Virus record (IMG/VR): IMGVR_UViG_3300017707_001413
Span: 1-41,176 of that record
Strand: one strand, 5' to 3'
Origin: a virus
Lineage: Duplodnaviria > Caudoviricetes
Length of the DNA: 41,176 nt
In this document: in pieces, positions 6,895-36,970 of the stretch
Layout of the letters: every line of letters starts with the position of its first letter
Position numbering within the stretch: position 1 is the first letter of the stretch
Notes under the pieces: model-generated
What the model was told of the DNA's origin: nothing
Databases searched by the model: none
The model's input: only the letters and a program-made list of their open reading frames with translations
Made by a program: the position numbers and the translations under genes

Positions 6895-6920
6895 TTTCTA
6901 AACGCACCTCCCACCTCGCC

Positions 6921-6959
6921 CCGCCGCTCTGGTTCACGCCGGGGCGGCGGTTTTATTTT
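6921..6959 (+). terminator. Rho-independent terminator after the capsid gene
   Basis: CCGCCGCTCTGG-TTCACG-CCGGGGCGGCGG followed by TTTTATTTT. Confidence 0.75.
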
Positions 6960-7316
6960 ATGACCGATTTTCTGAACGAAGTCGCCGCAGACTGCGCGGA
7001 AGCCGAGGCGGATCTCGGGTTGCCCGTCATGGTGTGGAACGATGGCACCCAAAACGTCAGCGCCACCGTCGCCGCCACCCTCACCAAGCGCGGCGCGGTG
7101 CTCGTCATTGGCGGGAAGGAGGTCGAGATCGCGCTCACCCTGCGCGCGCGCTGGACCGGGACCAACGCGGCCGGGGTGGAGTGGGAATTCACCGAGGCCG
7201 TGAAACCCAAGGCCGGAGAACGTGTGACCTACAAGGGCCGTCCGTATCGCATCGCGCAAGTGAGCGACGCCCACGGGGCATTCCTGGAAATCGACGTGAT
7301 CGACGTGAACAAATGA
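6960..7316 (+). CDS. Head-closure / head-tail joining protein
   Basis: Beta-rich 118 aa with 'PKAGERVTYKGRPYRI' motif typical of head-tail adaptors; position. Confidence 0.55.
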   Translation: MTDFLNEVAADCAEAEADLGLPVMVWNDGTQNVSATVAATLTKRGAVLVIGGKEVEIALTLRARWTGTNAAGVEWEFTEAVKPKAGERVTYKGRPYRIAQVSDAHGAFLEIDVIDVNK

Positions 7317-7318
7317 AG

Positions 7319-7834
7319 TCAATCCACGCCAGCCGGTTTAAGCTTCAGCAGTCGGGGAGAGCGGAAGCGGTCATAGCAGGAACCGGCCGCGCGCAACATC
7401 ACGCCCTCGCCGCCCTCCTTGGTGATGCTGGAGAAAAGTTCGAGCAAGTGTTCAAGACCACGGCAAACCGCCTGTGGCGCCACGGAAGCGAAAGCGGGCA
7501 AGGAAACCGAGCGAAGAAAAGCGGTGCGTTCCTCAAACCGACCGGGAGCCGAGGGGGCATCGAACACCATCAAGCGCAGTTCCGACCAGTCCGAGCACTT
7601 CACCGACCGTTGCATCTCGTTGAACCGCCCGCGCCCCAGCCAAAGTTCGCCGTCAAGCGCATGGGCGGGAAGCGCCGCGCGCCAGGCAGCCGGAGCAGGA
7701 AGGGTATTGCCGTCACGCGTCACCAGCTCGGAACCCGTCCACATCACGCGCCAGCCGTCATATTTCTCGGACAGCCACCAGCCCGCCGGGGAAACCACGG
7801 CGTTGTAACGTTTGGCCAGCATGAACATGGACAA
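7319..7834 (-). CDS. ATP-dependent DNA ligase, adenylation domain only
   Basis: Motif I SEKYDGWR, III LDGELW, IIIa VFDAP, IV EGVMLR, V LLKLK; stops a few residues after motif V with no OB domain. Confidence 0.85.
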   Translation of the reverse strand: MSMFMLAKRYNAVVSPAGWWLSEKYDGWRVMWTGSELVTRDGNTLPAPAAWRAALPAHALDGELWLGRGRFNEMQRSVKCSDWSELRLMVFDAPSAPGRFEERTAFLRSVSLPAFASVAPQAVCRGLEHLLELFSSITKEGGEGVMLRAAGSCYDRFRSPRLLKLKPAGVD

Positions 7835-7872
7835 ACCATCGTCCCAAACCGCGCCCGGAGCGATTACAAAAG

Positions 7873-8610
7873 ATGAGTGGAATCCAAATCGACACCCGCC
7901 AGTTCAAGGAAGCGATCCGGTTCGTTCACCAGAACACCAGGAAAGACCTGGCCGAGATCCTGAACCAACGCGCGTTCAACGTGGCGGCGCGCGCCATTGA
8001 CGACATGAAGCCGGCACCCGGATCCGAACAAGGCACGCGGGGAAGGATCAAAGCCTACATGGACACGCCGCTTGGCGCACCCAAGCTGCGGGTCATTCAG
8101 TCAGGAAAACGCCGGGGACAACTTACGCGGAAGGGCCGGAAGCAAGATCGGCTCACCCGCAAGAACCTGATAGTGCAGGCCCGCCGGGCCAAGGCCGGGC
8201 TGACCGGACTTTACGGCATGGCCATGCGGATGGAAGCCGGGGAACTCAGCCGTCGGGCGCAAGTCGGAGTTGGCTTCCTGAAATCCCCATTCCTGCCGAT
8301 CATCAAGGGGCTTCATGCGTTGGTGAAATACAAGCGCGTCAGAACCGCGTGGGGCCGGATCAGCGTGTGGCCGGGGTCCAAGGGATACGGAAAGATCACG
8401 CCAGCCAAAGCGGGGTTCAATGTCTTTGTCGAAATGCTGATGCGATGGCAGGTGCCCGGCGCACCGACCAAGGTACAGCGCATGGTGTTGCCACATCTTC
8501 AAGCGGCCTTTGACGCAGAGGCGCGCGAGATGGTCCGCCACACCACCGAGAAACTCCAACAGACCGCCAACAAAGTAAACGCCAAGTGGCGCCGCAGCAC
8601 ATTTCCATGA
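7873..8610 (+). CDS. Putative neck / tail-completion protein
   Basis: Basic 245 aa ORF in the head-tail region; positional call. Confidence 0.45.
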   Translation: MSGIQIDTRQFKEAIRFVHQNTRKDLAEILNQRAFNVAARAIDDMKPAPGSEQGTRGRIKAYMDTPLGAPKLRVIQSGKRRGQLTRKGRKQDRLTRKNLIVQARRAKAGLTGLYGMAMRMEAGELSRRAQVGVGFLKSPFLPIIKGLHALVKYKRVRTAWGRISVWPGSKGYGKITPAKAGFNVFVEMLMRWQVPGAPTKVQRMVLPHLQAAFDAEAREMVRHTTEKLQQTANKVNAKWRRSTFP

Positions 8611-8633
8611 TCCATGACTCCTGCCCCATGCCT

Positions 8634-8660
8634 CCTGACCCCTGACCCCTGACTCCTGAC
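8634..8660 (+). repeat. Heptamer tandem repeat (CCTGACY) x~4
   Basis: CCTGACC CCTGACC CCTGACT CCTGAC directly before ATG 8661. Confidence 0.85.
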
Positions 8661-9119
8661 ATGAGCGCCAACAACATCACCCAGAAAGTTCAGAAAGCGG
8701 CCAAGGCATACCTCGACAGCGAAGATCTCAGCTTCATCACCGATGAAGAGACGCAGATCGTCTGCGGCATCTCACGCGGGGAAATGAACCTGACGCAAGT
8801 GATCTGCCAGTGCAAAAGCGCCGAGGCGGAAGTGCCGTGGGAAGGCAACTGGTCGGCGAGCCTGCGCGTCGAGATCCGCAGCCAGGCCGATGACGACGAC
8901 CAGGAAGGCACCGCGCACTTTGCCAACGCCGGGGAAGTCTTCGAAAAGTTTATGGTCAGCATCACGGACGGCCGCGCGGCCTTGAGCAGCCAGGCCATCG
9001 GCTTCACCTGCCAGCAGCTTTTGCCCGTCAGCCAGGGATGGGAAATCGAAGGCGGCTCATGGGTCAGCTTCCTTGAGCTGCGCATGGAATGCGCCGGCAC
9101 ATACTTCGACGTGAGCTGA
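8661..9119 (+). CDS. Putative tail terminator protein
   Basis: Acidic 152 aa ORF just before the major tail gene; positional call. Confidence 0.45.
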   Translation: MSANNITQKVQKAAKAYLDSEDLSFITDEETQIVCGISRGEMNLTQVICQCKSAEAEVPWEGNWSASLRVEIRSQADDDDQEGTAHFANAGEVFEKFMVSITDGRAALSSQAIGFTCQQLLPVSQGWEIEGGSWVSFLELRMECAGTYFDVS

Positions 9120-9126
9120 CCACCCG

Positions 9127-9151
9127 TTGACTCCCGCGCCATCAGTGAACG
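9127..9151 (+). promoter_or_regulatory. Late-gene motif copy 3
   Basis: TTGACTCCCGCGCCATCAGTGAACG upstream of the major tail gene. Confidence 0.65.
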
Positions 9152-9187
9152 AACTCGACCACCATCGAAACAACGCACTGAACTTTT

Positions 9188-9643
9188 ATGGCCATAGAAA
9201 TCCAGCAGGGAAAAGCGAAAATATTCGGACTTGGCGCTGCTGACCTGGTATTGGGTGCCGCCAGCGTGGCGGTGGAACAGACCATCACCGGATCAGACCT
9301 GAACTTTGAATCCAAGATCATCGAAATCGAAAACCAATACGGGAACACCGAAACGCTGATCTCGTCCAACCCGACGTTGACCCTTTCGATCAACTTCATG
9401 CCGACGGCGGCAACCAGGACACTGGCCATCACGGAAGCGCAAAAGTTTACCGCGATGACGCATTTGGTAAAGGTGGTGACCAGCGCGTTTGACGTGGATC
9501 TGTTCAACGGAAAATGGAACCTGATGGGCCTGCAAATCAGGGGCGCTAACACCGAGGCGATGACGTTCGTGTTGAGCCTGAAGGCATGGGTTGATTCCAC
9601 GACCACGCGCGACGCGCTCACCGCCGGAGTCGTGGCGGGTTAA
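9188..9643 (+). CDS. Putative major tail (tube) protein
   Basis: 151 aa, beta-rich, Thr/Ala-rich, before chaperone and tape measure. Confidence 0.55.
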   Translation: MAIEIQQGKAKIFGLGAADLVLGAASVAVEQTITGSDLNFESKIIEIENQYGNTETLISSNPTLTLSINFMPTAATRTLAITEAQKFTAMTHLVKVVTSAFDVDLFNGKWNLMGLQIRGANTEAMTFVLSLKAWVDSTTTRDALTAGVVAG

Positions 9644-9667
9644 ACACTGTAAAAGAGCGCAGAAAAA

Positions 9668-9781
9668 ATGACCGTAGAACAAGCAGAGAGACTAATAAAA
9701 GTCGCTGAACAAAACCGGTTACTACTGCGATTCATACACTGGACGCTTTGTATCCTTATCGGGGTTTTGCTGGCGTCTTAA
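9668..9781 (+). CDS. Small membrane peptide (37 aa)
   Basis: MTVEQAERLIKVAEQNRLLLRFIHWTLCILIGVLLAS, translated by hand; AT-richer than its flanks. Confidence 0.45.
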   Translation: MTVEQAERLIKVAEQNRLLLRFIHWTLCILIGVLLAS

Positions 9782-9800
9782 CAGGTAGAAAAAAAACACT

Positions 9801-10421
9801 ATGAAGGAACGCGAATGGGCACACGCCGCGTTCCCGGAGGCGATCACGGTCCTGCGCCTGCGGTTGCGGCCGTATTCCTGCGGGCACGAGATCACGCTTT
9901 GCCAGGTCGAAAGCCCGTTCCTCACCGGCCAGCGCGAGCCGACCATCACCGATCTCATGCTCGCCGCGCTCATCTGCTCCCAAACCTTCACCGACGGTCA
10001 AAAGCTGTTGCGCGATCCAAAGGCCGGCGGATGGCAGGTAAGCCTATGGCGCTGGCTGGCGTTGAGAAATCCGAACCAATACGCCGAAGAAATCCGCTTC
10101 ACCGACTACCTCACCCGAGGAACGTGGAGCCCGCCCACCGTGCGGAATAACGAACCGGGCATGACCTATCGCGAACTCAAGGCGCCGAGGACATGGAGGC
10201 TCATTCCGTTCCTCTGCCGCAACCTGGGGCTTACCGAAGCGGAGGCGCTGGACTTCCCGCTCGCGCGCGCGCACGCCTACTTCGCGGCGGAAGCCGACCG
10301 GGAGAACACCATGGACCTGGCCAGTGAAGAAGGAGACCACACCACCGAAGGCCGGTTGCTGGCGCATCTGAAGGATTTGGAAGCCCGCGCCGCGAAAGGA
10401 GAACCGGTATGGGACTTCTAA
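9801..10421 (+). CDS. Putative tail assembly chaperone
   Basis: Between tail tube and tape measure; 'LGLTEAEALDFPLARA' resembles chaperone C-termini. Confidence 0.5.
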   Translation: MKEREWAHAAFPEAITVLRLRLRPYSCGHEITLCQVESPFLTGQREPTITDLMLAALICSQTFTDGQKLLRDPKAGGWQVSLWRWLALRNPNQYAEEIRFTDYLTRGTWSPPTVRNNEPGMTYRELKAPRTWRLIPFLCRNLGLTEAEALDFPLARAHAYFAAEADRENTMDLASEEGDHTTEGRLLAHLKDLEARAAKGEPVWDF

Positions 10422-26790: not shown

Positions 26791-26832
26791 GCAATTCAAT
26801 CGAGCGGGAGCGGACGGGAGCGGGGGGGGACG

Positions 26833-26932
26833 AAGCTCAAAGCTCAAAGTTCAAAGCTCAAAGTTCAAAGCTCAAAGTTCAAAGCTCAAAGTTCAAAGCT
26901 AAAAGCTCAAAACGTGAAACGTAAAACGTAAA
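26833..26932 (+). repeat. Heptamer array (AAAGCTC/AAAGTTC) x~11 followed by AAACGTR x3
   Basis: Alternating AAAGCTC/AAAGTTC units, then AAACGTG AAACGTA AAACGTA. Confidence 0.9.
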
Positions 26933-26939
26933 GGACGAC

Positions 26940-27152
26940 ATGCCAAGAAAACATAATGCAGCAACGGAATGCCTGCTCGCGGCGGCGCGGGTGCATGAGG
27001 TGGCGGGGACGCTGATCTTTGAACGGAAGGCGGACGCGCGCCAGATCGAAGCGGCCGTGGTGCAGTTGCAGAGGACGAGCGACACGCTCTTGAAGCTGCA
27101 AGCCTCGGAAAAGGCGGAGGCTTTGGAACAAGGAAAGGACGACAAACTATGA
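26940..27152 (+). CDS. Hypothetical protein
   Basis: RBS AAGGA, ATGA-coupled to the ATPase gene. Confidence 0.5.
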   Translation: MPRKHNAATECLLAAARVHEVAGTLIFERKADARQIEAAVVQLQRTSDTLLKLQASEKAEALEQGKDDKL

Positions 27153-28600
27153 ATCAATTCACGATCAACGGAGTGAACGGGGTGAAGGATCTGGTGGTGA
27201 GCATCGACGGGCCGGGGGTGTTCGTGGCCAGGGGGCCGAACGGGGCGGGGAAGTCGAACGCCATCGAGGCGATCAAGGCGGCAAACGGGGACAAGGACGC
27301 GAAGGCGGAGCCGTCCGACGGGTTCGCGAAGGGCGAGGTGCGCGGCGCAAGCGGAGAGGTGCTGATGGCGGTGGGGAACCGGCGGAAGCTGGCGGGCGAT
27401 CTGCCATCGGTGCGGCTGGTGTCCACGGGCGCGATTGGGCGGCTGATCGATCCGCAGATCGCGGACAGCGAGACGGCGGCGAAGGCGCGCATCAAGGCGT
27501 TGCTGACTTTGATGCCGCTGCCGGCGGATGACGCGGCGCGGATGGGGCTGACGGCGAATGACGAGGAGCTTCAGCTCTGGATCAAGAGTGATCCATCGAA
27601 GGACGCGGCGGAGATGGCGGAGGCGGTGCGGAAGCGGGCGAACGAGCTGGCGAACGAGCTGGAGAAGCGCAGCGCAGAGGCGTCGGGCGAGGAGCTTTCG
27701 ATGAACGCGCTGATCGAGGGTCTGGGGCAGTTGGATTTCGAGGCGGGCAATTTGAAGGTGCAGGAGACGATCCTTCAGCAGATGGCGAATGCGGCGTCAG
27801 TGAAGGCGGAGACGGCACAGGCGAGGTTGACGTTGGAGCGTCAGCAGGAAGAGGCAAGGAAGGCGATGGGCGAGAGGCCGGACATCGAGAAGGCGCAGGC
27901 GGATTTGGATGCGGCGAATCGATCTGTGTTTGAGGCGCAGGCCGCGTTGAAAGTGGCAGCGGCGATGTGGGAGGAAAAAGGCCGGGCGTTGAACGGGGCG
28001 AAGCGGGCACTGATGGTTTACGCGGCGCAAACCGAAATTCTGAGGCAAGAGATCAAAGGCGCCACGACGCAGGAGGCGATTGAAGCGGAGCAGGCGGCGG
28101 ATGCACAGCGGGGCCGGGTGGAACGGGCGCGGAAGGTGGACCAGGCGAAGAGCTTCATGGCGTCGGCGATGGCGGCGAAGGAGCGTCGGGAGAAGTGCGC
28201 GGATCGTGCGGTGGTATTGCGCGGCATCGCGAAGGGGACGGCGACGGCCTTGGGAGAATTGCTGGCGCGGCGCGGGTTGCCGGGGCTTGGGATCACGGAG
28301 GGTCGGCTGGTGGTGTTGGACCCGGCGGCACCGGGCGGGATGAAGGATTTCGATTTGCGCCTGAGCTTCGGCGAGCGGGTGCGGGCGGCGCTGGGGATTG
28401 CTCTTGCCGGAATGACCAATGACCAAGGCCCAATGTCCAATGACAGAAGGCTGCCGGTGATGGCGTTGGAGCCGGGTTTCTGGCTGGCGCTGGATGACGG
28501 GCACAGGGCGGAGGTGAACCGGATCGCGAGGGAACGCGGGGTGTGCCTGATCACGGAGGAGCCGGGGGATGGAGAACTGAGAATTGAGAGGATGGCGTGA
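27149..28600 (+). CDS. SMC/SbcC-like ABC-ATPase with coiled coil
   Basis: Walker A GPNGAGKS, long coiled coil, signature LSFGE, degenerate Walker B. Confidence 0.75.
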   Translation: MNQFTINGVNGVKDLVVSIDGPGVFVARGPNGAGKSNAIEAIKAANGDKDAKAEPSDGFAKGEVRGASGEVLMAVGNRRKLAGDLPSVRLVSTGAIGRLIDPQIADSETAAKARIKALLTLMPLPADDAARMGLTANDEELQLWIKSDPSKDAAEMAEAVRKRANELANELEKRSAEASGEELSMNALIEGLGQLDFEAGNLKVQETILQQMANAASVKAETAQARLTLERQQEEARKAMGERPDIEKAQADLDAANRSVFEAQAALKVAAAMWEEKGRALNGAKRALMVYAAQTEILRQEIKGATTQEAIEAEQAADAQRGRVERARKVDQAKSFMASAMAAKERREKCADRAVVLRGIAKGTATALGELLARRGLPGLGITEGRLVVLDPAAPGGMKDFDLRLSFGERVRAALGIALAGMTNDQGPMSNDRRLPVMALEPGFWLALDDGHRAEVNRIARERGVCLITEEPGDGELRIERMA

Positions 28601-28691
28601 ACGAAAAAGCTAACTGACGTATGCCCGCCACTGACTACCAAAACAAGAAAACCGTGAACTGGCATACGTTCACAGCAGCGCCTGGTTAGGC
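28596..28691 (-). other. attC site (cassette 16, most distal)
   Basis: Plus strand: CGTGAAC..TGACGTATGCC..GGCATACGTTCA..GTTAGGC. Confidence 0.75.
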
Positions 28692-28704
28692 GCACCTGAC
28701 CATT

Positions 28705-28905
28705 ATGAGCATCCAAGACATCCAAAAAAGAATCGACGACATAAAAGCGAGCGTGGGCGACGACGAGAGCGCGCACGGAATGGAAGACGCGCTCAGACGC
28801 GACTTCATCGCCTACCTCGCAAGCGGCGGGGCGGAAGACACCCAGAGCAAAGCGGCGCTCGTGCTCACAACCGAGGGACTGAGCTTTGCGCGGTGGTGCG
28901 CCTAA
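28705..28905 (+). CDS. Cassette 16 ORF, small hypothetical protein
   Basis: Cassette ends GTTAGGCGCAC / GTGCGCCTAAC (11/11 complementary); stop is the TAA of the R box. Confidence 0.7.
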   Translation: MSIQDIQKRIDDIKASVGDDESAHGMEDALRRDFIAYLASGGAEDTQSKAALVLTTEGLSFARWCA

Positions 28906-28985
28906 CGCCTAGCTATGGCACGGCGAAACAGGACTCCGATTGCAAGTGGCGGATTATCGCCGTTGCCATAAGCGTCTTGTTAGGC
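28900..28985 (-). other. attC site (cassette 15)
   Basis: GCCTAAC..GCTATGGCACGGCGA..TCGCCGTTGCCATAAGC..GTTAGGC. Confidence 0.85.
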
Positions 28986-29025: not shown

Positions 29026-29475
29026 ATGGAAATATACATAGTAAAAGAGTATGAAGCAATCGAGGGAGGCGGAGGTCACGAATCCATTATTGGGGCATGG
29101 TATGACAAGGAATCCGCCGAAAAATATGCCGCAAACCAGAACGGGGGGCGTTACATGCAGTGGGATGTTGAAGAGGTGGATGTCATGGATACTCAGCCTA
29201 ACTCCAAAGCTCAGCCAATGCCGCGCTCTCCCTCAACTCCCGCAGACCTCAACGGCCCCGTGCGCGGCATTGGCTGTGGCGGTTTGTTAGGCTGTATTTG
29301 TCACCGCTGCATTCGCGAGAAGGACATACGAAACGAATGGGGTATGCCGATAAGCTCCTCGCAAATGATCGTGTGCCCCGAATGCGGAAACAAACGATGC
29401 CCGCACGCCAGCGACCATCGATTCGCCTGCACGAAATCAAACCAACCCGGACAGGCCGGTAGCGTCTATGCTTAA
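29026..29475 (+). CDS. In-frame fusion of cassette 15 and cassette 14 ORFs (C-terminal Cys-rich domain)
   Basis: Reads through attC 29196-29292; internal ATG at 29218 starts the CHRC..CPECGNKRCPHASDH domain. Confidence 0.6.
   Translation: MEIYIVKEYEAIEGGGGHESIIGAWYDKESAEKYAANQNGGRYMQWDVEEVDVMDTQPNSKAQPMPRSPSTPADLNGPVRGIGCGGLLGCICHRCIREKDIRNEWGMPISSSQMIVCPECGNKRCPHASDHRFACTKSNQPGQAGSVYA
29196..29292 (-). other. attC site (cassette 14)
   Basis: GCCTAAC..CAGCCAATGCCGCGC..GCGCGGCATTGGCTG..GTTAGGC. Confidence 0.85.
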
Positions 29476-29582
29476 CTCCTGAGATGAGCCACGAGTCCGC
29501 AGAACACTCTATGGAAACGATAACTCAAAAACCTACCGAGAACGGACAGCCGGGCTTGTTGCGCTCTGGCGATTTGTTCGGC
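29470..29582 (-). other. attC site (cassette 13)
   Basis: GCTTAAC..GAGCCACGAGTCCG..CGGGCTTGTTGCGCTC..GTTCGGC (more degenerate). Confidence 0.65.
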
Positions 29583-29906
29583 GAGATTGTCCGCAAGCAC
29601 AGCCTCGCAGTCGAATCACTGACGGAACAACAGCTCGCCGAAGTCATACGGCAAGCAATCGCATCCGGCGACATCGTGCGGAACGTGATGCACGACGGCT
29701 CCGCGCAGGCGATCACCTACATCCCGTATCGCGAAGTCTCGCGCCTACGGGACCAGTATCACGAACTGCTCTACGCAGTCGCCAGCAAGCACGACGGCGA
29801 GACGCGGCACGAGACGGCGCTGCGCTATATCCGCGAACGCGAGGAACGCACCGAAGGCCCGGCCTCTTCTTCGCCGAACGCTCCGCATGAGCGACCGCCG
29901 ACATGA
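29484..29906 (+). CDS. Cassette 13 ORF, phage hypothetical protein (start 29484 or 29511, inside attC)
   Basis: Cassette ends GTTCGGCGA / TCGCCGAAC; 'YHELLYAVASKHDGETRHETALRYI'. Confidence 0.65.
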   Translation: MSHESAEHSMETITQKPTENGQPGLLRSGDLFGEIVRKHSLAVESLTEQQLAEVIRQAIASGDIVRNVMHDGSAQAITYIPYREVSRLRDQYHELLYAVASKHDGETRHETALRYIREREERTEGPASSSPNAPHERPPT

Positions 29907-29963
29907 GACGCCCGAACTCGCCAGAAACGCTTGCCGGCGGTTCGCTCCATGCGGTGGTTGGGC
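29873..29963 (-). other. attC site (cassette 12)
   Basis: GCCGAAC..CCGCATGAGCGACCGCCG..CGGCGGTTCGCTCCATGCGG..GTTGGGC. Confidence 0.9.
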
Positions 29964-29989
29964 GTCCGTCGAATTATGAAAATAGACGC

Positions 29990-30018
29990 TTGACAATGCG
30001 AGCTAGCACGCATAGAGT
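29990..30018 (+). promoter_or_regulatory. Sigma70 promoter inside cassette 12 with operator in the spacer
   Basis: TTGACA-N17-TAGAGT; near-palindrome ATGCGAGCTAGCACGCAT. Confidence 0.7.
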
Positions 30019-30026
30019 AGGCACGT

Positions 30027-30266
30027 ATGAAACAACAAATCACTGCGGTCAAAATAACGGCGGGGCAATATCGCCTCGGAAACCTCGTAGTCGTCAAACA
30101 TCCTCCGACGTTCGCGGGCACAACAACAACGTGGTGCAGGGCGGACAATCAAGGCGGCGGAATGCTCGGCTACTCGCTAGCGGAAGTGGTCGAACTGGCA
30201 AACAAGCCGATGTCGTATGCCTACGACCTCGCCAACGGCACGAAACTGCATCCCGCATCCAAATGA
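30027..30266 (+). CDS. Cassette 12 ORF1, hypothetical
   Basis: ATG 8 nt after the -10 box; ATGA-coupled to ORF2. Confidence 0.6.
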   Translation: MKQQITAVKITAGQYRLGNLVVVKHPPTFAGTTTTWCRADNQGGGMLGYSLAEVVELANKPMSYAYDLANGTKLHPASK

Positions 30267-30496
30267 ACAAGTGCCCCAAATGCGGCCACACATGGCCGGA
30301 CACGAAGCGCGCCAGCGGTGGAAAAGCTCGCTGGCGCGGACTCACCAAAAAGCAACGCTCACAAGCTGCCAGCGAGGCGGCGAAAGCACGATGGGCAAGG
30401 ACGCCCAACGTCGCCGATTCTCGAAATAACTCGGTGAGCAGCCCAACGACCAAGCTCAGCAACCACTGGCCGACAGTGACGAAGGACAACCAATGA
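30263..30496 (+). CDS. Cassette 12 ORF2, zinc-knuckle + basic helix protein
   Basis: MNKCPKCGH..SGGKARWRGLTKKQRSQAASEAAKARW. Confidence 0.65.
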   Translation: MNKCPKCGHTWPDTKRASGGKARWRGLTKKQRSQAASEAAKARWARTPNVADSRNNSVSSPTTKLSNHWPTVTKDNQ

Positions 30497-30556
30497 ACCA
30501 AAACGCATCGAACGTAAAGAGGACACCGGCTGTTGCGGTGCAGCGCGTGGTTAGGT
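30441..30556 (-). other. attC site (cassette 11)
   Basis: GCCCAAC..GCTCAGC..GCCG..CCGGCTGTTGCGGTGCAGC..GTTAGGT; homologous to attC 35619-35745. Confidence 0.75.
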
Positions 30557-30825
30557 GCGTCGAGGTTTCAAAAGAACTTCAAGACAATCTGGCCGTGATG
30601 AAAAGACTGATCGGAGACAAATGGGAAGCCAGCGCCGCCGAATACAAAACCATCGTGAGCAGAGTGATGATCGCTACCAACGACGACAACCCAATCTCCT
30701 GCGCGCTTCCGATGGCGAAAGAAATGTCCAGGCGAGGACACAGCCCGCTCATGCTGCTGGCCGTCGCAACTGAAATGAGCGAAGCACCTAACGCAGAGTC
30801 CAGCCGCCCCGCGCCGAAAATCTGA
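30493..30825 (+). CDS. Cassette 11 ORF, hypothetical (starts in attC loop)
   Basis: Cassette ends GTTAGGTGC / GCACCTAAC; RBS AAGGA + ATG inside attC. Confidence 0.65.
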   Translation: MNQNASNVKRTPAVAVQRVVRCVEVSKELQDNLAVMKRLIGDKWEASAAEYKTIVSRVMIATNDDNPISCALPMAKEMSRRGHSPLMLLAVATEMSEAPNAESSRPAPKI

Positions 30826-30898
30826 ACGCTATGGAAACGAAAACGAGCAACGAAAATCAGGACGCTTGCGCGGGGTTGGCTGCGACGACGGGTTATGC
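30786..30898 (-). other. attC site (cassette 10)
   Basis: ACCTAAC..GTCCAGCCGCCCCGCGC..GCGCGGGGTTGGCTGCGAC..GTTATGC. Confidence 0.85.
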
Positions 30899-31100
30899 CA
30901 TTCGCGCCATGAATCCACGCGAGGGCGACAAAATCACACAGGGCTCGACCACAATAGAAGTGAAGTGGGTGGCGGACGGAACTGTAGCCTACGTGGTGCA
31001 AAACGAATCGCAAAAGCTAGACCGACAAGCCCCGCTCGAAGACTGGCCGAGGCTGATGCGAATAGCATTGGACAAGGGGGCAACATTCCATGCGGCATAA
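30831..31100 (+). CDS. Cassette 10 ORF, hypothetical
   Basis: Cassette ends GTTATGCC / GGCATAAC; ATG in the attC loop. Confidence 0.6.
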   Translation: METKTSNENQDACAGLAATTGYAIRAMNPREGDKITQGSTTIEVKWVADGTVAYVVQNESQKLDRQAPLEDWPRLMRIALDKGATFHAA

Positions 31101-31186
31101 CGATCCGGATCAGAGACCCGGCCAATGAAGACTCTCGATTGCAACCACGACGCGATGGCCGGGTTCTCTGCATCCGGTTGTTCTCC
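31095..31186 (-). other. attC site (cassette 9)
   Basis: GCATAAC..CCGGATCAGAGACCCGGCCA..TGGCCGGGTTCTCTGCATCCGG..GTTCTCC. Confidence 0.9.
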
Positions 31187-32021
31187 ATCCGGTCGAACTC
31201 ACCTCGACCTGTTCAGTGGAATCGGTGGCTTCGCGCTCGCCGCGCAAGCGGCGGGATACTCAACCATCGGCTTTTCTGAAATCGAACCCTATGCCTGCAA
31301 AATCCTCAAACGACACTGGCCCGACGTGCCCAACCACGGCGACATCCGAAATATCCGAAACGTGCGGGCCGACCTCATCACAGGCGGATTTCCTTGCCAG
31401 CCTTTCAGTCTCGCCGGGAAGCGACTCGGCGCGGCGGATGACCGTCACCTCTGGCCGGAAATGTGCCGAGTTATTGGCGAGGCGCGACCAACTTGGGTGC
31501 TTGGTGAGAATGTGCCTGGAATCATCGGTCTGGAACTCGACGGCGTGCTATCTGACTTGGAAGGTCTCGGCTACGCCGCGTGGCCGCTTGTTATTCCGGC
31601 TGTCGCCTGCGATGCCAGACACCGAAGAGACCGGCTTTGGGTTGTGGCCCACTCCCAATGTCTGTGGCGGCGGGAACCCGCCGCACATCCTGACGAAGCA
31701 CAAGGGCCACTACATCCGACCAAGCGGGAAGAAGGCGCACCTCGGACTGGACCAAGCCGTGAAGCTGTGGCCGACGCCTCGGGCGAGCGAAAACGAAAAC
31801 CGGCAGACGAAGCCAACTCCGTCGCAGATAGCGGGAACACATGGCAAGAGTCTGGCGGCGGAATGCGGTGGCGCCCTGAACCCGAACTGGGTCGAGTGGC
31901 TGATGGGATACCCAATCGGCCACACCGCCTCCGTGGACTTGGAAACGCCATCGTCCCGCAAGTCGCGGAAACGCTCCTGCGCATGATGGCGAGGATGGAG
32001 AACGATAAAATCCTGCCATGA
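31125..32021 (+). CDS. Cassette 9: DNA cytosine-5 methyltransferase (alpha polypeptide)
   Basis: Motif I DLFSGIGG, IV GGFPCQPFS, VI ENV, VIII HRRDRLW, X LGNAIVPQVA. Confidence 0.92.
   Translation: MKTLDCNHDAMAGFSASGCSPSGRTHLDLFSGIGGFALAAQAAGYSTIGFSEIEPYACKILKRHWPDVPNHGDIRNIRNVRADLITGGFPCQPFSLAGKRLGAADDRHLWPEMCRVIGEARPTWVLGENVPGIIGLELDGVLSDLEGLGYAAWPLVIPAVACDARHRRDRLWVVAHSQCLWRREPAAHPDEAQGPLHPTKREEGAPRTGPSREAVADASGERKRKPADEANSVADSGNTWQESGGGMRWRPEPELGRVADGIPNRPHRLRGLGNAIVPQVAETLLRMMARMENDKILP
31216..31986 (+). CDS. Overlapping +1-frame ORF, probable beta polypeptide of the C5-MTase (TRD + motif IX)
   Basis: 256 open codons inside the MTase gene; WPTP repeats and LNPNWVEWLMGYP (motif IX-like); true start uncertain. 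Confidence 0.65.
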   Translation: MESVASRSPRKRRDTQPSAFLKSNPMPAKSSNDTGPTCPTTATSEISETCGPTSSQADFLASLSVSPGSDSARRMTVTSGRKCAELLARRDQLGCLVRMCLESSVWNSTACYLTWKVSATPRGRLLFRLSPAMPDTEETGFGLWPTPNVCGGGNPPHILTKHKGHYIRPSGKKAHLGLDQAVKLWPTPRASENENRQTKPTPSQIAGTHGKSLAAECGGALNPNWVEWLMGYPIGHTASVDLETPSSRKSRKRSCA

Positions 32022-32094
32022 ATCCCGCGCCCTCCAGCTCCGCCTCGTCACCGACTCCCTCGCGGGAGTCATTGGCAGCGATGCCTTGTTGTCC
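31997..32094 (-). other. attC site (cassette 8)
   Basis: GGAGAAC..ATCCTGCCATGAATCCCGCG..CGCGGGAGTCATTGGCAGCGAT..GTTGTCC. Confidence 0.85.
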
Positions 32095-32875
32095 GTCTTT
32101 TGTGTATTCCGCGCAGGGCTCACTATGGGGAGAAAAGGAGGTAGTCGGATTCGGGAATTATGCGTTCCGCGTCGTGGAAATCGGCAAGCCGGAAGCAAAC
32201 GCCGTGATCATCGCAAACCACTACTCGAAAAAAACCGCCACCGATGCCCACACGCGCCTCTGCTATGCCGTGGAAATCGACGGGGAGAGAATGGGCGTGC
32301 TGCAATTCGGATACGCCATGAATCCCGCCAGTGGCTCGGCTGTGGTGGCAGAAACCGGGCTGAATGACTACCTGGAACTGAATCGGATGTGGCTCGATGA
32401 CCGCGCCCCGCGCAACACCGAAAGCAAGGCGATAGCCTACTGCCTGCGGACGATCCGCCGCCGGATGCCAACCGTCGAATGGGTGATGAGCTTCGCGGAT
32501 GAACGCTGCGGAAAGCTGGGCGTGGTCTATCAGGCCGCAAACTTCGGATACTACGGCGGACACGTCTCCACGTTCTGGGAAATCGACGGTGAAATGATCC
32601 ACAATGCGATAGCCACGAACGGCAAGCGGAAACGCAAGGACTCGCTCGACATGGAAAAGGCGATCCGCCACGACCTACGGCAATTCCGATACATCTACTG
32701 GCTGCAAAAGCGGGCGCGGAAACGCTGCCTACTCACTGAGCAGCCATACCCCAAACATGCGTCAGAGGGCTCTGTGGAGAGCCGCCTCGTTACCAACGAG
32801 GAGGGGCAGGGTCAGATCCTGCCTGACGCTCCATTTTCTTCGGACAACGACCAAGCTCAGCGACCTGCCAAATGA
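32018..32875 (+). CDS. Cassette 8: Mom-like adenine-modification protein (GNAT fold)
   Basis: IIANHYS, GVLQFG, YLELNRMWLDD..PRNTES, SFADERCG..GVVYQAANF are hallmarks of the phage Mu Mom family. Confidence 0.85.
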   Translation: MNPAPSSSASSPTPSRESLAAMPCCPSFVYSAQGSLWGEKEVVGFGNYAFRVVEIGKPEANAVIIANHYSKKTATDAHTRLCYAVEIDGERMGVLQFGYAMNPASGSAVVAETGLNDYLELNRMWLDDRAPRNTESKAIAYCLRTIRRRMPTVEWVMSFADERCGKLGVVYQAANFGYYGGHVSTFWEIDGEMIHNAIATNGKRKRKDSLDMEKAIRHDLRQFRYIYWLQKRARKRCLLTEQPYPKHASEGSVESRLVTNEEGQGQILPDAPFSSDNDQAQRPAK

Positions 32876-32947
32876 TCCAAAGCGATCCAATTGCCTCAAT
32901 GCGTCGTGCCGGGCGAACCGCAGGTTCGCTGAAGCGCGTGGTTACAC
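32842..32947 (-). other. attC site (cassette 7)
   Basis: GGACAAC..GCTCAGCGACCTGC..GCAGGTTCGCTGAAGC..GTTACAC. Confidence 0.9.
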
Positions 32948-33108
32948 CGCGTCCGGACGATCCGGGATGGCTGGAGGACTGGCCAAGGCGAAACAAGGCC
33001 GGTGACGCAGTGGTGATGTGGGATGAACTTATCGCGTGCATGAACCTGCGGCATCAGCGGTGTAACGCAGAAGTCAGCGACCGGCGCGGAGCCGGTTCGC
33101 TGCACTGA
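32872..33108 (+). CDS. Cassette 7 ORF, small hypothetical
   Basis: Cassette ends GTTACACCGC / GCGGTGTAAC; starts and stops inside attC sites. Confidence 0.5.
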   Translation: MIQSDPIASMRRAGRTAGSLKRVVTPRPDDPGWLEDWPRRNKAGDAVVMWDELIACMNLRHQRCNAEVSDRRGAGSLH

Positions 33109-33118
33109 CGGGTTCTGC
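33060..33118 (-). other. attC site (cassette 6), classic 59-base element
   Basis: Minus strand: GCAGAAC CCGTC AGTGCAGC GAACCGGC TCCGC GCCGGTC GCTGACT TCTGC GTTACAC. Confidence 0.92.
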
Positions 33119-33122
33119 ATTT

Positions 33123-33413
33123 ATGACGAAAATTGACTATTACGAAGGACTGAACCGCGACTCGAAACTGACCGTGGAACTCGACGTGCCGACAGTCGCG
33201 AAAGAAATCTGCGCGATGAACTACGGCGCGCACCGGCTGCTCTCAGCGATGGTCCGCGAACTCCGAGCGAAGAACATGGAATACGTGAACTACCAACGCG
33301 AGAAGGACGCCGCATTGCCGGAAAATCGGCGGCTTAATCTGCCCGCTGAACGCGAACGGTCGCCGCTGGCCGACGCAATCGAAGCCGCACTAAACGCGGG
33401 GCACACCTACTAA
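33123..33413 (+). CDS. Cassette 6 ORF, hypothetical
   Basis: Cassette ends GTTCTGCATTTA / TAAATGCAGAAC (12/12). Confidence 0.7.
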   Translation: MTKIDYYEGLNRDSKLTVELDVPTVAKEICAMNYGAHRLLSAMVRELRAKNMEYVNYQREKDAALPENRRLNLPAERERSPLADAIEAALNAGHTY

Positions 33414-33415
33414 AT

Positions 33416-33508
33416 GCAGAACGGTGCGGATCAGCGACCGGGCCACACGAAAGGCTCGGATTGCAAGTGACGTGCGATGGCCCGGTTCGCTGCATCCGCT
33501 TGTTAGGG
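33416..33508 (-). other. attC site (cassette 5)
   Basis: Minus strand: CCCTAAC AAGCG GATGCAGC GAACCGGGCC..GGCCCGGTC GCTGATC CGCACC GTTCTGC. Confidence 0.92.
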
Positions 33509-33546
33509 CGCAGTTTCCGGGGCGTGAAAATAAATGCAGAATCTTC

Positions 33547-33574
33547 TTGCAATACCCAGCGATGGGTATAGAGT
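33547..33574 (+). promoter_or_regulatory. Sigma70 promoter inside cassette 5 with operator in the spacer
   Basis: TTGCAA-N16-TAGAGT; inverted repeat ATACCCA-GCGA-TGGGTAT. Confidence 0.65.
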
Positions 33575-33580
33575 GAGCAC

Positions 33581-33763
33581 ATGAATAAAGCAACTCTGAC
33601 GGGAATGAGAATGATGGCCGAAGCGATGACCGCAACGGATAACTACGCTGCCCAAATCGAAGTGGATGGAAAATGGCAGACCGTGATCGACAAGCTCAAC
33701 AAGGCCGAAGCCGAAAAGATGGCGAGCCGATGGGAGCGCAGCCGGGTGGTGAAGGTATGGTAA
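33581..33763 (+). CDS. Cassette 5 ORF1, hypothetical
   Basis: ATG 6 nt after the -10 box (leaderless-type). Confidence 0.6.
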   Translation: MNKATLTGMRMMAEAMTATDNYAAQIEVDGKWQTVIDKLNKAEAEKMASRWERSRVVKVW

Positions 33764-33969
33764 AATGCCCACACTGCGGCGGGGAAATAAACCCCGCCGC
33801 ACTCCTCGGCAGCATCTCGACGCCAGCGAAGGCGCGGGCTGCTCGCGCGAACGCCAAGCTCGGCGGATGGCCGAAGGGCCGGAAGCGTGGAAAAACCAAG
33901 CGCGTCTGCCTGCGCCCTAACGCTCCGCATGAGCCATGCGGCGCGAAGAAAGAAAACCGTGAACACTGA
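33757..33969 (+). CDS. Cassette 5 ORF2, zinc-knuckle + basic protein
   Basis: MVKCPHCGG..STPAKARAARANAKLGGWPKGRKR. Confidence 0.65.
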   Translation: MVKCPHCGGEINPAALLGSISTPAKARAARANAKLGGWPKGRKRGKTKRVCLRPNAPHEPCGAKKENREH

Positions 33970-34026
33970 AACCAATATCCGAACTGAAGGGCGTCCGCCG
34001 CATTGTGCTCCATGCGGTTGTTCTCC
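33915..34026 (-). other. attC site (cassette 4)
   Basis: CCCTAAC..CCGCATGAGCCATGCGGCG..CGCCGCATTGTGCTCCATGCGG..GTTCTCC. Confidence 0.88.
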
Positions 34027-34636
34027 TGCGTCAAATTCTAAAATGCGCTTCTCAGATGAGCATCGAGCAAATCTGTCCGCTGCCCTATCAGGTCGAAAAT
34101 TTTCTGATGAGCACCGCAAAAAACTCTCGGAAAGCTACAGGATGACATATAAAAACGGTCGCCAGCCTTCGGTAATCGCCGCAAACAAACTCGCTGAATG
34201 GACGAAGCAAAACCTGACTGGAAAGCCGCTGTCTCCAGAACACAATGAAAACGCCCACGCCCCGCTGCGTGGGAAACTCCGAACATCTGAAAAAGTAAAA
34301 CGCGGCAAGCTCACTGGAGCACTATCCGGCCAAATCAGAGACGACAGAGGCGTAACACACCGCTTTGTAAATCTCGTCCACTTCGTAAGAACGAATCCTC
34401 ATCTGTTCAAGGCTGATGAAATCCAATGGCGTAAAGACGGGCGAGGACATGAAGTGTGCCGTGCCTCAAAAGGGCTGGCGAATCTGTTTGGGAAAGGAAA
34501 GGTCGTGCCGGGATCGTGGCACGGCTGGACTGTCGTAAGCATCCATGAACGACGCTTCAATGACGGGAACGACCTACTCGCCCGGAACGATCAGGAGAAC
34601 GCTCCGCATGAGCGACCGCCGACCAAAACGCTATGA
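33959..34636 (+). CDS. Cassette 4: NUMOD3-motif DNA-binding protein
   Basis: FSDEHRANLSAALSGRKFSDEHRKKLSES and GKPLSPEH repeats; GTG start in the attC loop (start uncertain). Confidence 0.65.
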   Translation: MNTETNIRTEGRPPHCAPCGCSPASNSKMRFSDEHRANLSAALSGRKFSDEHRKKLSESYRMTYKNGRQPSVIAANKLAEWTKQNLTGKPLSPEHNENAHAPLRGKLRTSEKVKRGKLTGALSGQIRDDRGVTHRFVNLVHFVRTNPHLFKADEIQWRKDGRGHEVCRASKGLANLFGKGKVVPGSWHGWTVVSIHERRFNDGNDLLARNDQENAPHERPPTKTL

Positions 34637-34683
34637 TTGCAACTGAAACGCCAGCGGCGGTTCGCTCGATGCGGTTGTTAGAC
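34594..34683 (-). other. attC site (cassette 3)
   Basis: GGAGAAC..CCGCATGAGCGACCGCCG..GCGGCGGTTCGCTCGATGCGG..GTTAGAC. Confidence 0.9.
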
Positions 34684-35373
34684 GGCCAGATTGTGACGCC
34701 ATACTACGAAGATGAATACGCGACGCTCTACAATATGGACTGTGAACAAGGAATCGAAGGCGTGAAATTCGATGTCCTTCTGACCGATCCGCCCTACTTC
34801 CTGCCGATCAATTCATACGTCGGGCGGCGTGGTGAAGGCTACGAGAAAACCATGCTCGGCGACATGAGCGTGCTGCGCGGCTACTTCAAGATGATGTTCC
34901 GAAAGTTCCGGGCGGCGATGCCTGACACTGGCAGCATCTACGCCTTCTGTGATGCCAAAAGCTATCCAATCTTTTTTGAAGCGATGTTCCCGCTGTGCAA
35001 GCACGTCCGGCTGATAATCTGGGACAAGCAAGTTAGCTACAACGGCTACACATGGCGGCATCAGCACGAACTCATAGCGTGGGGCGAACTCGAAAACACC
35101 GTGCGCGTGCCAACCGGCGACGGCGACATCATCCGATGCCGTGGCGTGCTACAAGACGACAAACAACATCCCGCCGAAAAGCCGGTGCGACTGCTTGAGG
35201 CAATCTGTAAAAAACACGAAGGCGTCATCTGTGACCCATACGCGGGAAGCGGTTCGACGCTGGTAGCTGCGAAGATATGCGGTCGAAAAAGCATAGGCTT
35301 CGAGATGGAGGAAAAGCACTGTGAAACAGCAGCAAAGCGACTACAACAAACAACGCTCGGCCTGGCCGTCTAA
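34633..35373 (+). CDS. Cassette 3: DNA N4-cytosine/N6-adenine methyltransferase (beta class)
   Basis: LTDPPY, IIWDK, HPAEKP, DPYAGSGST; cassette ends GTTAGACGGCCAG / CTGGCCGTCTAAC (13/13). Confidence 0.92.
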   Translation: MIATETPAAVRSMRLLDGQIVTPYYEDEYATLYNMDCEQGIEGVKFDVLLTDPPYFLPINSYVGRRGEGYEKTMLGDMSVLRGYFKMMFRKFRAAMPDTGSIYAFCDAKSYPIFFEAMFPLCKHVRLIIWDKQVSYNGYTWRHQHELIAWGELENTVRVPTGDGDIIRCRGVLQDDKQHPAEKPVRLLEAICKKHEGVICDPYAGSGSTLVAAKICGRKSIGFEMEEKHCETAAKRLQQTTLGLAV

Positions 35374-35498
35374 CGAGAAAGGTCAGCGATGAGCTGTCAA
35401 AAATGCGGTGGTGAACATAGCACAATGGCGTGTGATGACGAAGGCGAGCAACGAACGAGAAAGGCGCAAAGCTCATTCGCTGCACCGTCTGGATATGC
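35368..35498 (-). other. attC site (cassette 2) with non-canonical ATC/GAT core
   Basis: GTCTAAC..GGTCAGCGATGAGC..GCTCATTCGCTGCACC..GATATGC. Confidence 0.85.
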
Positions 35499-35685
35499 CG
35501 CGATGGAGGCCACGGTGACGGCTCTCGAACGACGGGTATCCGAACTGGAGAAGCACTCGCATCCGCCCGTGAATCTGCGACCCGCCGTGGAAGCCATCGT
35601 GGAAGAATGTCTCTCGCGGCATATCGACCAAGCTCACCCACAGCCGGGGGCGGCAGGGGTGGAGCGCAAAGGAGACAACCAATGA
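35389..35685 (+). CDS. Cassette 2 ORF, hypothetical
   Basis: Cassette ends GATATGCCGCGA / TCGCGGCATATC (12/12). Confidence 0.55.
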   Translation: MSCQKCGGEHSTMACDDEGEQRTRKAQSSFAAPSGYAAMEATVTALERRVSELEKHSHPPVNLRPAVEAIVEECLSRHIDQAHPQPGAAGVERKGDNQ

Positions 35686-35745
35686 ACCAAGAAACATCGA
35701 ACGTAGAGAGCGCACCGGCTGTTGCGGTGGAGCGCGTGGTTAGCC
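35619..35745 (-). other. attC site (cassette 1)
   Basis: GCATATC..GCTCACCCACAGCCGG..CCGGCTGTTGCGGTGGAGC..GTTAGCC. Confidence 0.85.
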
Positions 35746-35969
35746 GCCTGCCAGCGTGTAAAGGAACAAACTGCGGATGCACAGATGGGGTCAGCCACTC
35801 CAAGGAATGCCGCGAAGAATACGAAGCTGCCACGGCCATGCCCTACGACGAACAATGGCTGCACGAACCAGATGACGGGCGAGGCTGGAAGTGCCACGTC
35901 TGCAAATACGGCGGCTCGGCAAACAACAGCGCGAACACCTTCTGCGCGAACTGCCACAGGCACAAATGA
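35682..35969 (+). CDS. Cassette 1 ORF, Cys-rich with RanBP2-like zinc finger
   Basis: CKGTNCGCTDGVSHSKEC and WKCHVC..N..CANC; RBS AAGGAG + ATG in the attC loop; ends GTTAGCCGCCT / AGGCGGCTAAC. Confidence 0.65.
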   Translation: MNQETSNVESAPAVAVERVVSRLPACKGTNCGCTDGVSHSKECREEYEAATAMPYDEQWLHEPDDGRGWKCHVCKYGGSANNSANTFCANCHRHK

Positions 35970-35973
35970 AGGC

Positions 35974-36010
35974 GGCTAACAGTGATTAACAAACTCCTGA
36001 TCTGTTAAAT
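35974..36010 (-). other. Putative attI site
   Basis: Minus strand: ATTTAACAGATCAGGAGTTTGTTAA-TCACT-G^TTAGCC; an R core without an attC hairpin, directly upstream of intI. Confidence 0.65.
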
Positions 36011-36970
36011 ATGAACACCGAGGCTGCAATTCAAAGACTTGTGGAAGTGTGCCGGAGGCAGCACAAATCGCTGTCAACAGAGAGGGTTTACTCGCATTGG
36101 CTACGGGACTTTTGCAGGTTTGTTCCGACCGTAGATCCTGCTCTTTCCAGTGAGCGAAAGATGGAGGCTTATTTGACGATGCTGGCCCGGAAAAGGGATG
36201 TATCCGCATCGACGCAGAATCAGGCGTTCAATGCGGTGTTGTTCTTTTATCGGCGCGTGCTCGGGCAGGAATTGAAGGACATCGACGGACTGCGCGCGAC
36301 GCGGCCGGATCGGGTGCGGTATGCGCCGACGGTGGATGAGGTGCGCCAGTTGTTGCCGATGGTGCGCGATGTGGGTGGGTATCCGACGAACTTGATCACG
36401 CGGATGCTTTACGGGTGCGGTTTGCGTGTGAGTGAGCCGCTGGCGTTGCGGGTGAAGGATCTGGATCTGGTGAACAGCCAGGTGCGAATCATCGAAGCGA
36501 AGAATCGAAAGGATCGCGTGGTCAAGCTGCCGTGTTCCATCGTGGAGGAGTTGCGAGCGCAGATGGATTTCGCGCGGGCGGTCTGGCGGCGGGACGTGGA
36601 GGGAAAGTTGCCGGTGGTGTTGCCGCATCAGTTGGCGAGGAAATATCCGGCTTATCAATTCGCCTGGTCGTGGGCCTGGGTGTTTCCGATGCGGAACGCT
36701 TGCCGGCATCCGCGCACGGGTGAATGGGTGCGCTGGCATGTGCTGCCGTGCAATGTGCAGCGGGCGGTTCAGGAGGCGGCGCAAAAGCTGGAACTGCCGA
36801 TCACGCCCCACTGTTTGCGCCACGCCTACGCGACGCATTCGCTGAACCGGGGCGTGAACATCAAGGCGTTGTCAGAGGCGATGGGGCACGCGCAGATCGA
36901 GACGACGGCGGGGTATTGCCACGCGGAGGCGTTGAGCGTGCCGAGTCCGTTGGAATTGGTGATGGCATGA
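36011..36970 (+). CDS. intI: Integron integrase (tyrosine recombinase)
   Basis: SASTQNQAFNAVLFFY, LYGCGLRVSE, IntI-specific insertion LPHQLARKYP..W.WVFP..HPRTG..RWH, HCLRHAYATH, MGH..TTAGY. Confidence 0.92.
   Translation: MNTEAAIQRLVEVCRRQHKSLSTERVYSHWLRDFCRFVPTVDPALSSERKMEAYLTMLARKRDVSASTQNQAFNAVLFFYRRVLGQELKDIDGLRATRPDRVRYAPTVDEVRQLLPMVRDVGGYPTNLITRMLYGCGLRVSEPLALRVKDLDLVNSQVRIIEAKNRKDRVVKLPCSIVEELRAQMDFARAVWRRDVEGKLPVVLPHQLARKYPAYQFAWSWAWVFPMRNACRHPRTGEWVRWHVLPCNVQRAVQEAAQKLELPITPHCLRHAYATHSLNRGVNIKALSEAMGHAQIETTAGYCHAEALSVPSPLELVMA

Follow-up and report, generated by a model that had tools for sequence, protein, structure and literature searches.

Inverted gene cassettes with a common reading frame in a putative integron of a tailed phage

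Bacterial integrons, the closest described systems, combine an integrase (IntI), an attI site at the 5′ end of intI, and attC sites with R and L boxes in which a bottom-strand AAC is the predicted exchange site (PMC2727003, PMC5027507, PMC4889954). For attC, extrahelical bases have been described on the R″–L″ arm, and a cut of the bottom strand at the AAC of R′ (Bouvier 2009, PMC2727003; Nivina 2016, PMC5027507). For short open reading frames (ORFs) at attC, termination followed by re-initiation has been proposed (PMC8876359; 10.1101/2024.03.26.586746). The same components occur in the IMG/VR virus record IMGVR_UViG_3300017707_001413, of which the whole stretch of 41,176 nucleotides was analysed here (the window) and which carries a tailed-phage gene set, with terminase, portal, head protease and major capsid genes on the left and replication-type genes on the right. 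We consider it probable that the window holds a phage integron with flipped genes, in which the swap point AA|C lies at gene 3′ ends and AAC is almost always read as a codon, likely through selection across a shared cassette pool.

Polarity of the phage integron

The integrase gene (plus strand, 36011–36970) encodes a 319-residue IntI that scores 274.9 bits against the integron integrase profile TIGR02249, above the curated cut-off of 265. Its best match in the PDB is IntI4 (2a3v, E = 4e-42), in an alignment that spans the integron-specific insertion, and motif positions assign R139, K164, H267, R270, H293 and Y302 as catalytic residues. A candidate attI on the minus strand (35974–36010) has its crossover AA|C at 35978–35980 and, at 35987, a TAA in frame with AAC, and its left box pairs with the GTTAGCC of the last attC. 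The sequence AA|C-A(A/G)TGATT is conserved on the integrase side after the last cassette, just before intI, at 27 loci including the window; these candidate loci were chosen by eye. With intI at a distance of 33 nt from the attI triplet, the window is not a CALIN (an attC cluster without an integrase). With attI and its core triplet at the 5′ end of intI, as in complete integrons, the window integron is, as judged from sequence only, complete, comprising IntI, attI and 16 attC sites.

A covariance model trained on 21 attC sites of ordinary arrays, for which the genes set the orientation, matches 16 sites in the window between 28596 and 35745, all on the minus strand, with E values of 1e-18 to 8e-4 at 15 sites and 0.35 at the site at 29470. 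The training sites came from the same in-house detector, so this check of polarity is only partly independent. An Rfam search of the window returned no match, and an exact scan of viral sequences for one attC arm returned none. The hairpin, the R″/R′ and L″/L′ boxes and the extrahelical base are present in the array, with degenerate sites at 28596, 29470 and 30441. The right arm carries the unpaired base, at 8 nt from GTT, and this position predicts that plus is the recombining strand and the left AAC the swap point. Integrase, attI and attC are mutually ordinary in geometry; the genes alone are flipped and face the integrase. It follows from the minus-strand polarity of the sites that each attC precedes its gene, so the preliminary description was right to assign ORFs to the attC of their own cassette, and that a cassette consists of C + attC + gene + xxxxAA. 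A reverse integron, in which the integrase is inverted, was considered and rejected: intI is on the plus strand and attC polarity is minus, and the genes are what is inverted.

The GTTxxxx and xxxxAAC boxes flanking each gene of the window are complementary, as expected from cassette exchange, and in the inverted arrays introduced below R boxes are exactly complementary in 88/120 comparisons across cassettes compared with 18/158 within one site. No cassette-skipping joint at AAC was present in contigs of two DNA sequencing runs, which is uninformative either way. Contigs of run X1, possibly the source of the window, rebuild it with one letter different. One X1 contig joins 28439 to 36989 over the whole array; its short side is 24 letters, it possibly derives from a related phage, and it is not used as evidence.

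Genes on the attC top strand driven from the Pc promoter, a further mark of integrons, are absent here: the cassette genes of the window occupy the bottom strand and run toward intI, out of reach of expression from Pc. The sole match of a promoter-like scan points toward intI, and no full TGTTC-N4-GAACA box occurs in the window. Inversion is not universal in phages, as phage Rctr41k (L212, KX853513) has ordinary polarity. Its positions 6641–10101 hold six attC sites, unannotated as such, downstream of a co-oriented integrase, and three annotated Rctr41k genes enter attC in one frame.

Reading frame, stops and starts

Ten genes of the window read through a cassette end, and each of them has AAC or ATC there as an in-frame codon: PN at 29200, 29877, 30407, 30790 and 33919, EN at 32001 and 34598, DN at 32846, CN at 33064 and HI at 35623. 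The preliminary claim that this triplet is in frame in every read-through case thus stands for all ten, with the qualification that at the attC at 30441 it is valid only for an extra GCCCAAC at 30403, 38 nt upstream; the AAC at 30445 is crossed out of frame. A homologous cassette in locus L011 marks the GCCCAAC at 30403 as a natural cassette end. The window is a small sample, in which a model-free comparison of frame 0 (the AAC core triplet read as a codon) with frame 1 gives p = 0.10, and significance therefore rests on related arrays.

The comparison drew on 206 loci that surround related integrases, 46 of them viral, 80 from metagenomes and 80 from genomes. Chained attC sites were detected mechanically, and genes were called with our own codon model trained outside the arrays. 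At least two chained attC sites are present at 56/206 loci, comprising 38 inverted arrays (34 once duplicate sites were removed), 16 ordinary arrays and 2 that are ambiguous (L003 and L055, excluded); the mixed locus L090 is counted as inverted and gives 4 of the 15 stop-less attC sites described below. The detector finds 13 of the 16 sites of the window, so related arrays are under-called and some genes scored as ending early may hide a missed attC. All counts over 143 attC sites exclude the window. Of 31 viral loci 30 are inverted and one is ambiguous, and 10 of 12 genome-record loci are ordinary. Counted by cassette, gene direction is plus in 93, minus in 2 and unclear in 8 viral cases, and plus in 4, minus in 23 and unclear or too short in 2 genome cases. 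Second attC clusters, on the opposite strand and away from the integrase, occur in L037/L038 (636–1670), L036 (2445–2999) and L003 (3988–7549).

At the 143 non-redundant attC sites of the 34 inverted arrays, genes reading through the crossover do so 58, 0 and 1 times in frames 0, 1 and 2; the upstream gene otherwise ends at the R box (21), ends earlier (52) or is not called (11). On the same strand of the ordinary control arrays (60 attC sites) the corresponding numbers are 1, 5 and 3. Enlarging the sample, a check set beforehand, therefore strengthened the frame bias. The 59 read-through genes belong to 56 protein families, 55 of which use frame 0. Without a gene model, at least 80 open codons lie upstream in frames 0, 1 and 2 at 77, 7 and 7 sites of inverted arrays, compared with 4, 3 and 1 in the controls, and frame 0 is longer than frame 1 at 120/143 sites (p = 8e-17; control, 31/60). 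The 86 sites without a possible TAA block of frame 2 give 63, 8 and 16 with at least 50 open codons. Five extra loci, found by attC motif and not by integrase, contribute 15 sites, all 15 with an internal frame-0 stop; at least 50 open codons occur there in frame 0 at 9 sites and in the other frames at 1 and 2.

The integrases of the frame-biased arrays range from 36 to 65% identity, and each of the two main clades of a quick tree contains some of them. This tree needs at least 6 changes between the two labels, a weak count in that the ‘ordinary’ group includes 2 ambiguous rows and several one-cassette calls. The ordinary array of locus L051 (5473–9503), beside a 57% identical integrase, has attC sites like those of the phage and lacks the frame rule; this array is a candidate host-type source of the phage sites.

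A stop in frames 0, 1 and 2 is held by 128, 84 and 75 of the 143 attC sites, compared with 35, 32 and 35 of 60 in the controls, and all 27 attI candidates have a frame-0 stop within 45 nt. The first frame-0 stop is part of an ATGA in 45/142 sites, compared with 6.8 ± 2.1 in 500 loop shuffles and 2/59 in the controls. In the window, the seven ATGA motifs reported earlier (29903, 31125, 32018, 32872, 34633, 35389 and 35682) each place TGA in the AAC frame. Those at 31125 and 35389 are, as had also been reported, present behind a gene that has already stopped, at a TAA in the R box. The motif at 29903 serves as the stop of the upstream gene only: its ATG opens no plausible gene, and the frame from it is strongly non-coding (score −20.3 over 120 codons).

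An in-attC ATG for the cassette's own gene is found in about 44% of sites (63/142), most often one base before the frame-0 stop. Among genes open back to attC, 63/94 have such an ATG, compared with 37/188 in other frames. Relative to AAC, these starts are distributed 8, 15 and 40 over frames 0, 1 and 2 (p = 1e-6); relative to GTT, the non-exchanging end and thus an internal control, the distribution is only mildly uneven (17, 15 and 31). Exact overlap with the stop occurs at 30/63. An A follows ATG in 37/40 frame-2 starts compared with 15/23 other starts (p = 0.013) and 54% of ordinary genes. For 13/63 genes there is no ATG, GTG or TTG within 20 codons past the site. One case is decisive by position: in the C5 DNA methyltransferase, the first such codon after attC is codon 46 and the Pfam match begins at residue 27, after whose first conserved motif the codon lies, so that the start must be inside attC. 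The statement that many ORFs start in their own attC is strongly supported, such a start being obligatory for this gene, with less force at 33959 and 34633, where alternatives exist past attC.

Homologues of the gene at 29484 suggest that its ends are exchangeable. Among the best 96 of 120 listed homologues, 93 could be anchored; 34/93, a count that includes the gene of the window itself, show an aligned xN close to their end. Tails of at least five residues follow the same Asn in 23 and are all different, although one-residue tails may be truncated genes. Of the 34, 27 also have a variable N-terminal leader ending at the attC end, and 52/93 have neither feature. The tails match frame-0 translations of attC arms best on average (18.5, with 14.5 and 12.0 for the others). 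These protein sequences would fit cassette status for such homologues. L003 has the same methyltransferase as the window, with another attC ahead and another tail behind, Asn and frame being kept.

Proposed mechanism and alternatives

About 40% of genes (58/143 junctions) lack their own stop, and the attC or attI that follows gives them a tail of 2–24 codons and a stop. Most attC sites offer a stop in one frame; stop-less genes would survive reshuffling only in that frame, and such attC sites would in turn be favoured, giving a self-reinforcing convention. IntI would recombine the folded coding strand at AA|C, and new cassettes would enter at attI beside the integrase. Transcription would come from upstream or cassette-borne phage promoters, directed toward intI, and not from Pc, and ribosomes reaching an attC would open its hairpin in the mRNA, with the hand-over at ATGA. 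We lean, by a modest degree, toward a class of phage integrons with a shared grammar of backward cassettes, an in-frame Asn at the crossover and interchangeable stop/start attC loops, by which any cassette of the pool, irrespective of the integrase lineage that moves it, would fit a transcribed operon with its termination, and often its coupling, in place.

Several observations weigh against the start-and-stop part of this proposal. Exact ATGA coupling occurs at only 15 of the 58 read-through junctions; at another 15 a start lies within −8 to +20 nt, at 27 there is a stop but no in-attC start nearby, and one junction lacks a stop. In the window, 6/10 read-through genes end at ATGA, one of them ahead of a non-gene. 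Of 30 ATGA-coupled attC sites, 14 follow a gene that has already stopped, and genes elsewhere in this genome often overlap by ATGA. The frame-0 stop is missing in 15/143 related attC sites (1 of these 15 is behind a read-through gene, compared with 58 of all 143) and 2/16 of the window, and at 29200 an upstream gene fuses with the next through an attC without a stop. Shine–Dalgarno-like words are not enriched at in-attC starts (9/63, compared with 46/188 ordinary genes and 11/131 other ATGs; p = 0.11 and 0.22), frame 0 is no more open than frame 1 before the first ATG (10 and 13 of 40 frame-2 starters, p = 0.63), and the predicted hairpin does not clearly expose the AUG or bury it (0.52 compared with 0.58, p = 0.11). 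Moreover, the attC families share ancestry, so that stop and ATGA counts are not independent, and the gene frames come from our own codon model. The A content of the 12 nt upstream of in-attC starts is somewhat higher (0.36 compared with 0.25 and 0.30), and of the window starts checked only 30493 and 35682 have a Shine–Dalgarno-like word. The idea that attC also serves as a ribosome-binding site accordingly found no support. The earlier rule that termination and re-initiation survive any cassette order keeps its common frame and its stop supplied by the next attC, and was overstated for coupling and for the stop-less sites. Termination appears to be nearly order-proof, and coupling a frequent bonus, not a rule.

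These points would suit a narrower convention in which the frame serves termination only, in-loop starts arose because no other free sequence is closer than the loop, and ATGA is the overlap usual in phages, with no true coupling at attC. Such a convention is a serious possibility, if one we rate below the full grammar; it accommodates the 27/58 junctions with a stop and no near in-attC start, the persistence of ATGA behind stopped genes and before the non-gene at 29903, and the absence of any special openness of frame 0 ahead of ATG. It sits poorly with the preference of starts for the frame that makes ATGA a frame-0 stop (40, 15 and 8) and with the enrichment of A after ATG in frame 2, whose p values are given above. 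Alternatively, the bias could be an inherited or mechanistic by-product of cassette formation or of a few founder attC sites, arising without ongoing selection for translation. Phage attC sites do look like the host-type sites of ordinary arrays, near-identical arms recur across phages, and the preference for frame 0 over frame 1 lacks an explanation. We nevertheless regard this origin as unlikely, as the bias extends over 55/56 unrelated protein families and over the divergent integrases of both clades, while similar attC sites in ordinary arrays lack it (in L051 a frame-0 stop is held by 1/6).

Two further explanations would remove the phenomenon itself. If an array of ordinary polarity had been misread, the crossover would be at the right-hand GTT and each attC would belong to the upstream gene. 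Integrases co-oriented with cassettes have been described (Cury 2016, PMC4889954) and Rctr41k has the ordinary arrangement of gene and attC, yet the position of the extrahelical base, the minus-strand model matches, the position and conservation of attI, and a constraint that falls on AAC and not on GTT make this reading very improbable. That the pattern is due to chance, the sample being small and GC-rich and its long frames spurious, would agree with the model-free test on the window by itself, and is hardly credible given the excess of frame 0 over frame 1 in the related arrays, which the controls do not share. We therefore retain the integron with flipped genes and an in-frame AAC as the preferred reading.

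The cassettes of the window and their relation to known systems

In attC 1, at the distal end (28596–28693; all 16 sites are on the minus strand), AAC is overlapped by the TGA of a resident gene (27149–28600), and attC 2 (28900–28985) is known from the covariance model. An exception to the stop rule is attC 3 (29196–29292), in which the ATG at 29218 is in the AAC frame and that frame has no stop. The resulting in-frame fusion, 149 codons long (29026–29475), joins two cassette genes via this site, and its second half is a small Cys-rich protein. The degenerate attC 4 (29470–29582) holds a TGA at 29480 and ATGs at 29484 and 29511 for the gene at 29484–29906, which is terminated by the ATGA of attC 5 (29873–29963). 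The cassette after attC 5 has a promoter-like TTGACA-17-TAGAGT at 29990–30018.

A 38-nt insert (30409–30446) between two copies of GCCCAAC shifts the gene at 30263–30496 so that it ends at the ATGA at 30493, an ending whose restoration has a one-in-three chance of being coincidence. None of the 206 loci matches the insert, which resembles a lone attC left arm and converts a would-be fusion to an ATGA-coupled pair. In attC 6 (30441–30556), the ATG at 30493, preceded by a Shine–Dalgarno-like AGGA, is in the AAC frame of the site, which has no stop; before this ATG the site is 11 nt shorter than its sister at 35619 and the site of L209. A TGA at 30823 and an ATG at 30831 lie in attC 7 (30786–30898). 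The next sites each have an ATGA: attC 8 (31095–31186; ATGA at 31125) provides the region in which the C5 DNA methyltransferase (31125–32021) must start, and attC 9 (31997–32094) the ATGA at 32018 for a Mom-family gene (32018–32875), followed by attC 10 (32842–32947) with the ATGA at 32872.

The short attC 11 (33060–33118) has a TGA at 33106, and the next ATG, at 33123, is outside the site. The cassette of attC 12 (33416–33508) consists of a non-coding leader and two small genes; TTGCAA-17-TAGAGT in this leader was read by eye and is absent from the promoter scan list. The cassettes at 29963–30407 and 33508–33919 are alike in having a promoter-like leader, a small gene and a basic Cys-x-x-Cys gene, the genes being joined by ATGA at 30263 and by an ATGGTAA-type overlap at 33757, with homologues in L011, L039 and L005. 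These leader-bearing cassettes may act as internal promoters of the array. A TGA at 33967 lies in attC 13 (33915–34026), whose homing-endonuclease-like gene could start at 33929, 33959 or 34043; the GTG at 33959 is optional, as the ATG at 34043 is just beyond the site. An N6/N4 DNA methyltransferase (34633–35373) begins at the ATGA of attC 14 (34594–34683), with an in-frame GTG three codons past the site as alternative. GAT replaces GTT in attC 15 (35368–35498; ATGA at 35389) and ATC replaces AAC in attC 16 (35619–35745), so that the cassette from 35368–35498 to 35619–35625 has a matched change of both core triplets. The latter site is nearest attI and supplies a Shine–Dalgarno-like GGAG and the ATGA at 35682 for the gene at 35682–35969. 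Tandem 7-nt repeats (AAGCTCA/AAGTTCA) lie at 26819–26925, upstream of an AAA-domain gene.

The cargo of C5 methyltransferase, Mom-family protein, N6/N4 methyltransferase and homing-endonuclease-like gene includes DNA-modifying enzymes that plausibly counter restriction. The sequencing run that best contains the window sequence is a freshwater metagenome, from which the window may derive. Several of the nearest integrases in genome records (50–60% identity) are on contigs labelled Verrucomicrobiota, with other labels also represented, and these contig labels suggest Verrucomicrobiota as the host group.

The layout offers a concrete, testable mechanism for phage mosaicism, in which an integrase drives the order-independent swapping of small genes. 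It also bears on the question of cassette origin, since cassette ends lie inside reading frames under a rule common to unrelated genes and distant integrases. If the proposal is true, the tails that vary at the N and C termini of many small phage proteins would be translated recombination sites, and occasional stop-less attC sites would yield new fusion proteins, a natural standard for in-frame gene shuffling. Recombination sites that preserve frame after shuffling are a corresponding design idea.

Compared with the bacterial integrons described in the papers cited at the outset, the window differs in that its genes point toward intI from the bottom strand, attC precedes the gene, and the crossover is often inside a reading frame, with one frame common to the cassettes. 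Searches of the open-access literature found no report of this inverted, frame-locked layout, and within that literature it is apparently a new integron variant. The phage integrons and CALINs of Qi et al. (2023, PMC9892861) resemble the window in having attC arrays in phage genomes and DNA methyltransferase cargo. What that study presents as complete integrons are fragments of class 1 integrons or of integrons from host chromosomes, unlike that of the window, and antisense genes, in-attC starts and a frame rule are not described in its main text. At ORF-11/ORF-17 of attI1 (reviewed in PMC8876359, where Jacquier 2009 is cited), as here, a reading frame extends over the crossover and ends at a stop that the cassette inserted there provides. 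Those earlier cases are an attI1 leader peptide or an occasional mini-ORF, the latter termed ‘anecdotal’ in the preprint 10.1101/2024.03.26.586746, whereas in the window cargo genes are affected, array-wide and on the opposite strand. Proteins with embedded attC sites (Nivina 2020, PMC7439510) share with the window a sequence that is both coding and a working recombination site. Those attC sites are engineered linkers; in the window, natural attC sites serve as coding sequence, beyond the engineered sites and short leader frames of these earlier papers, and lie at gene ends, with starts and stops.

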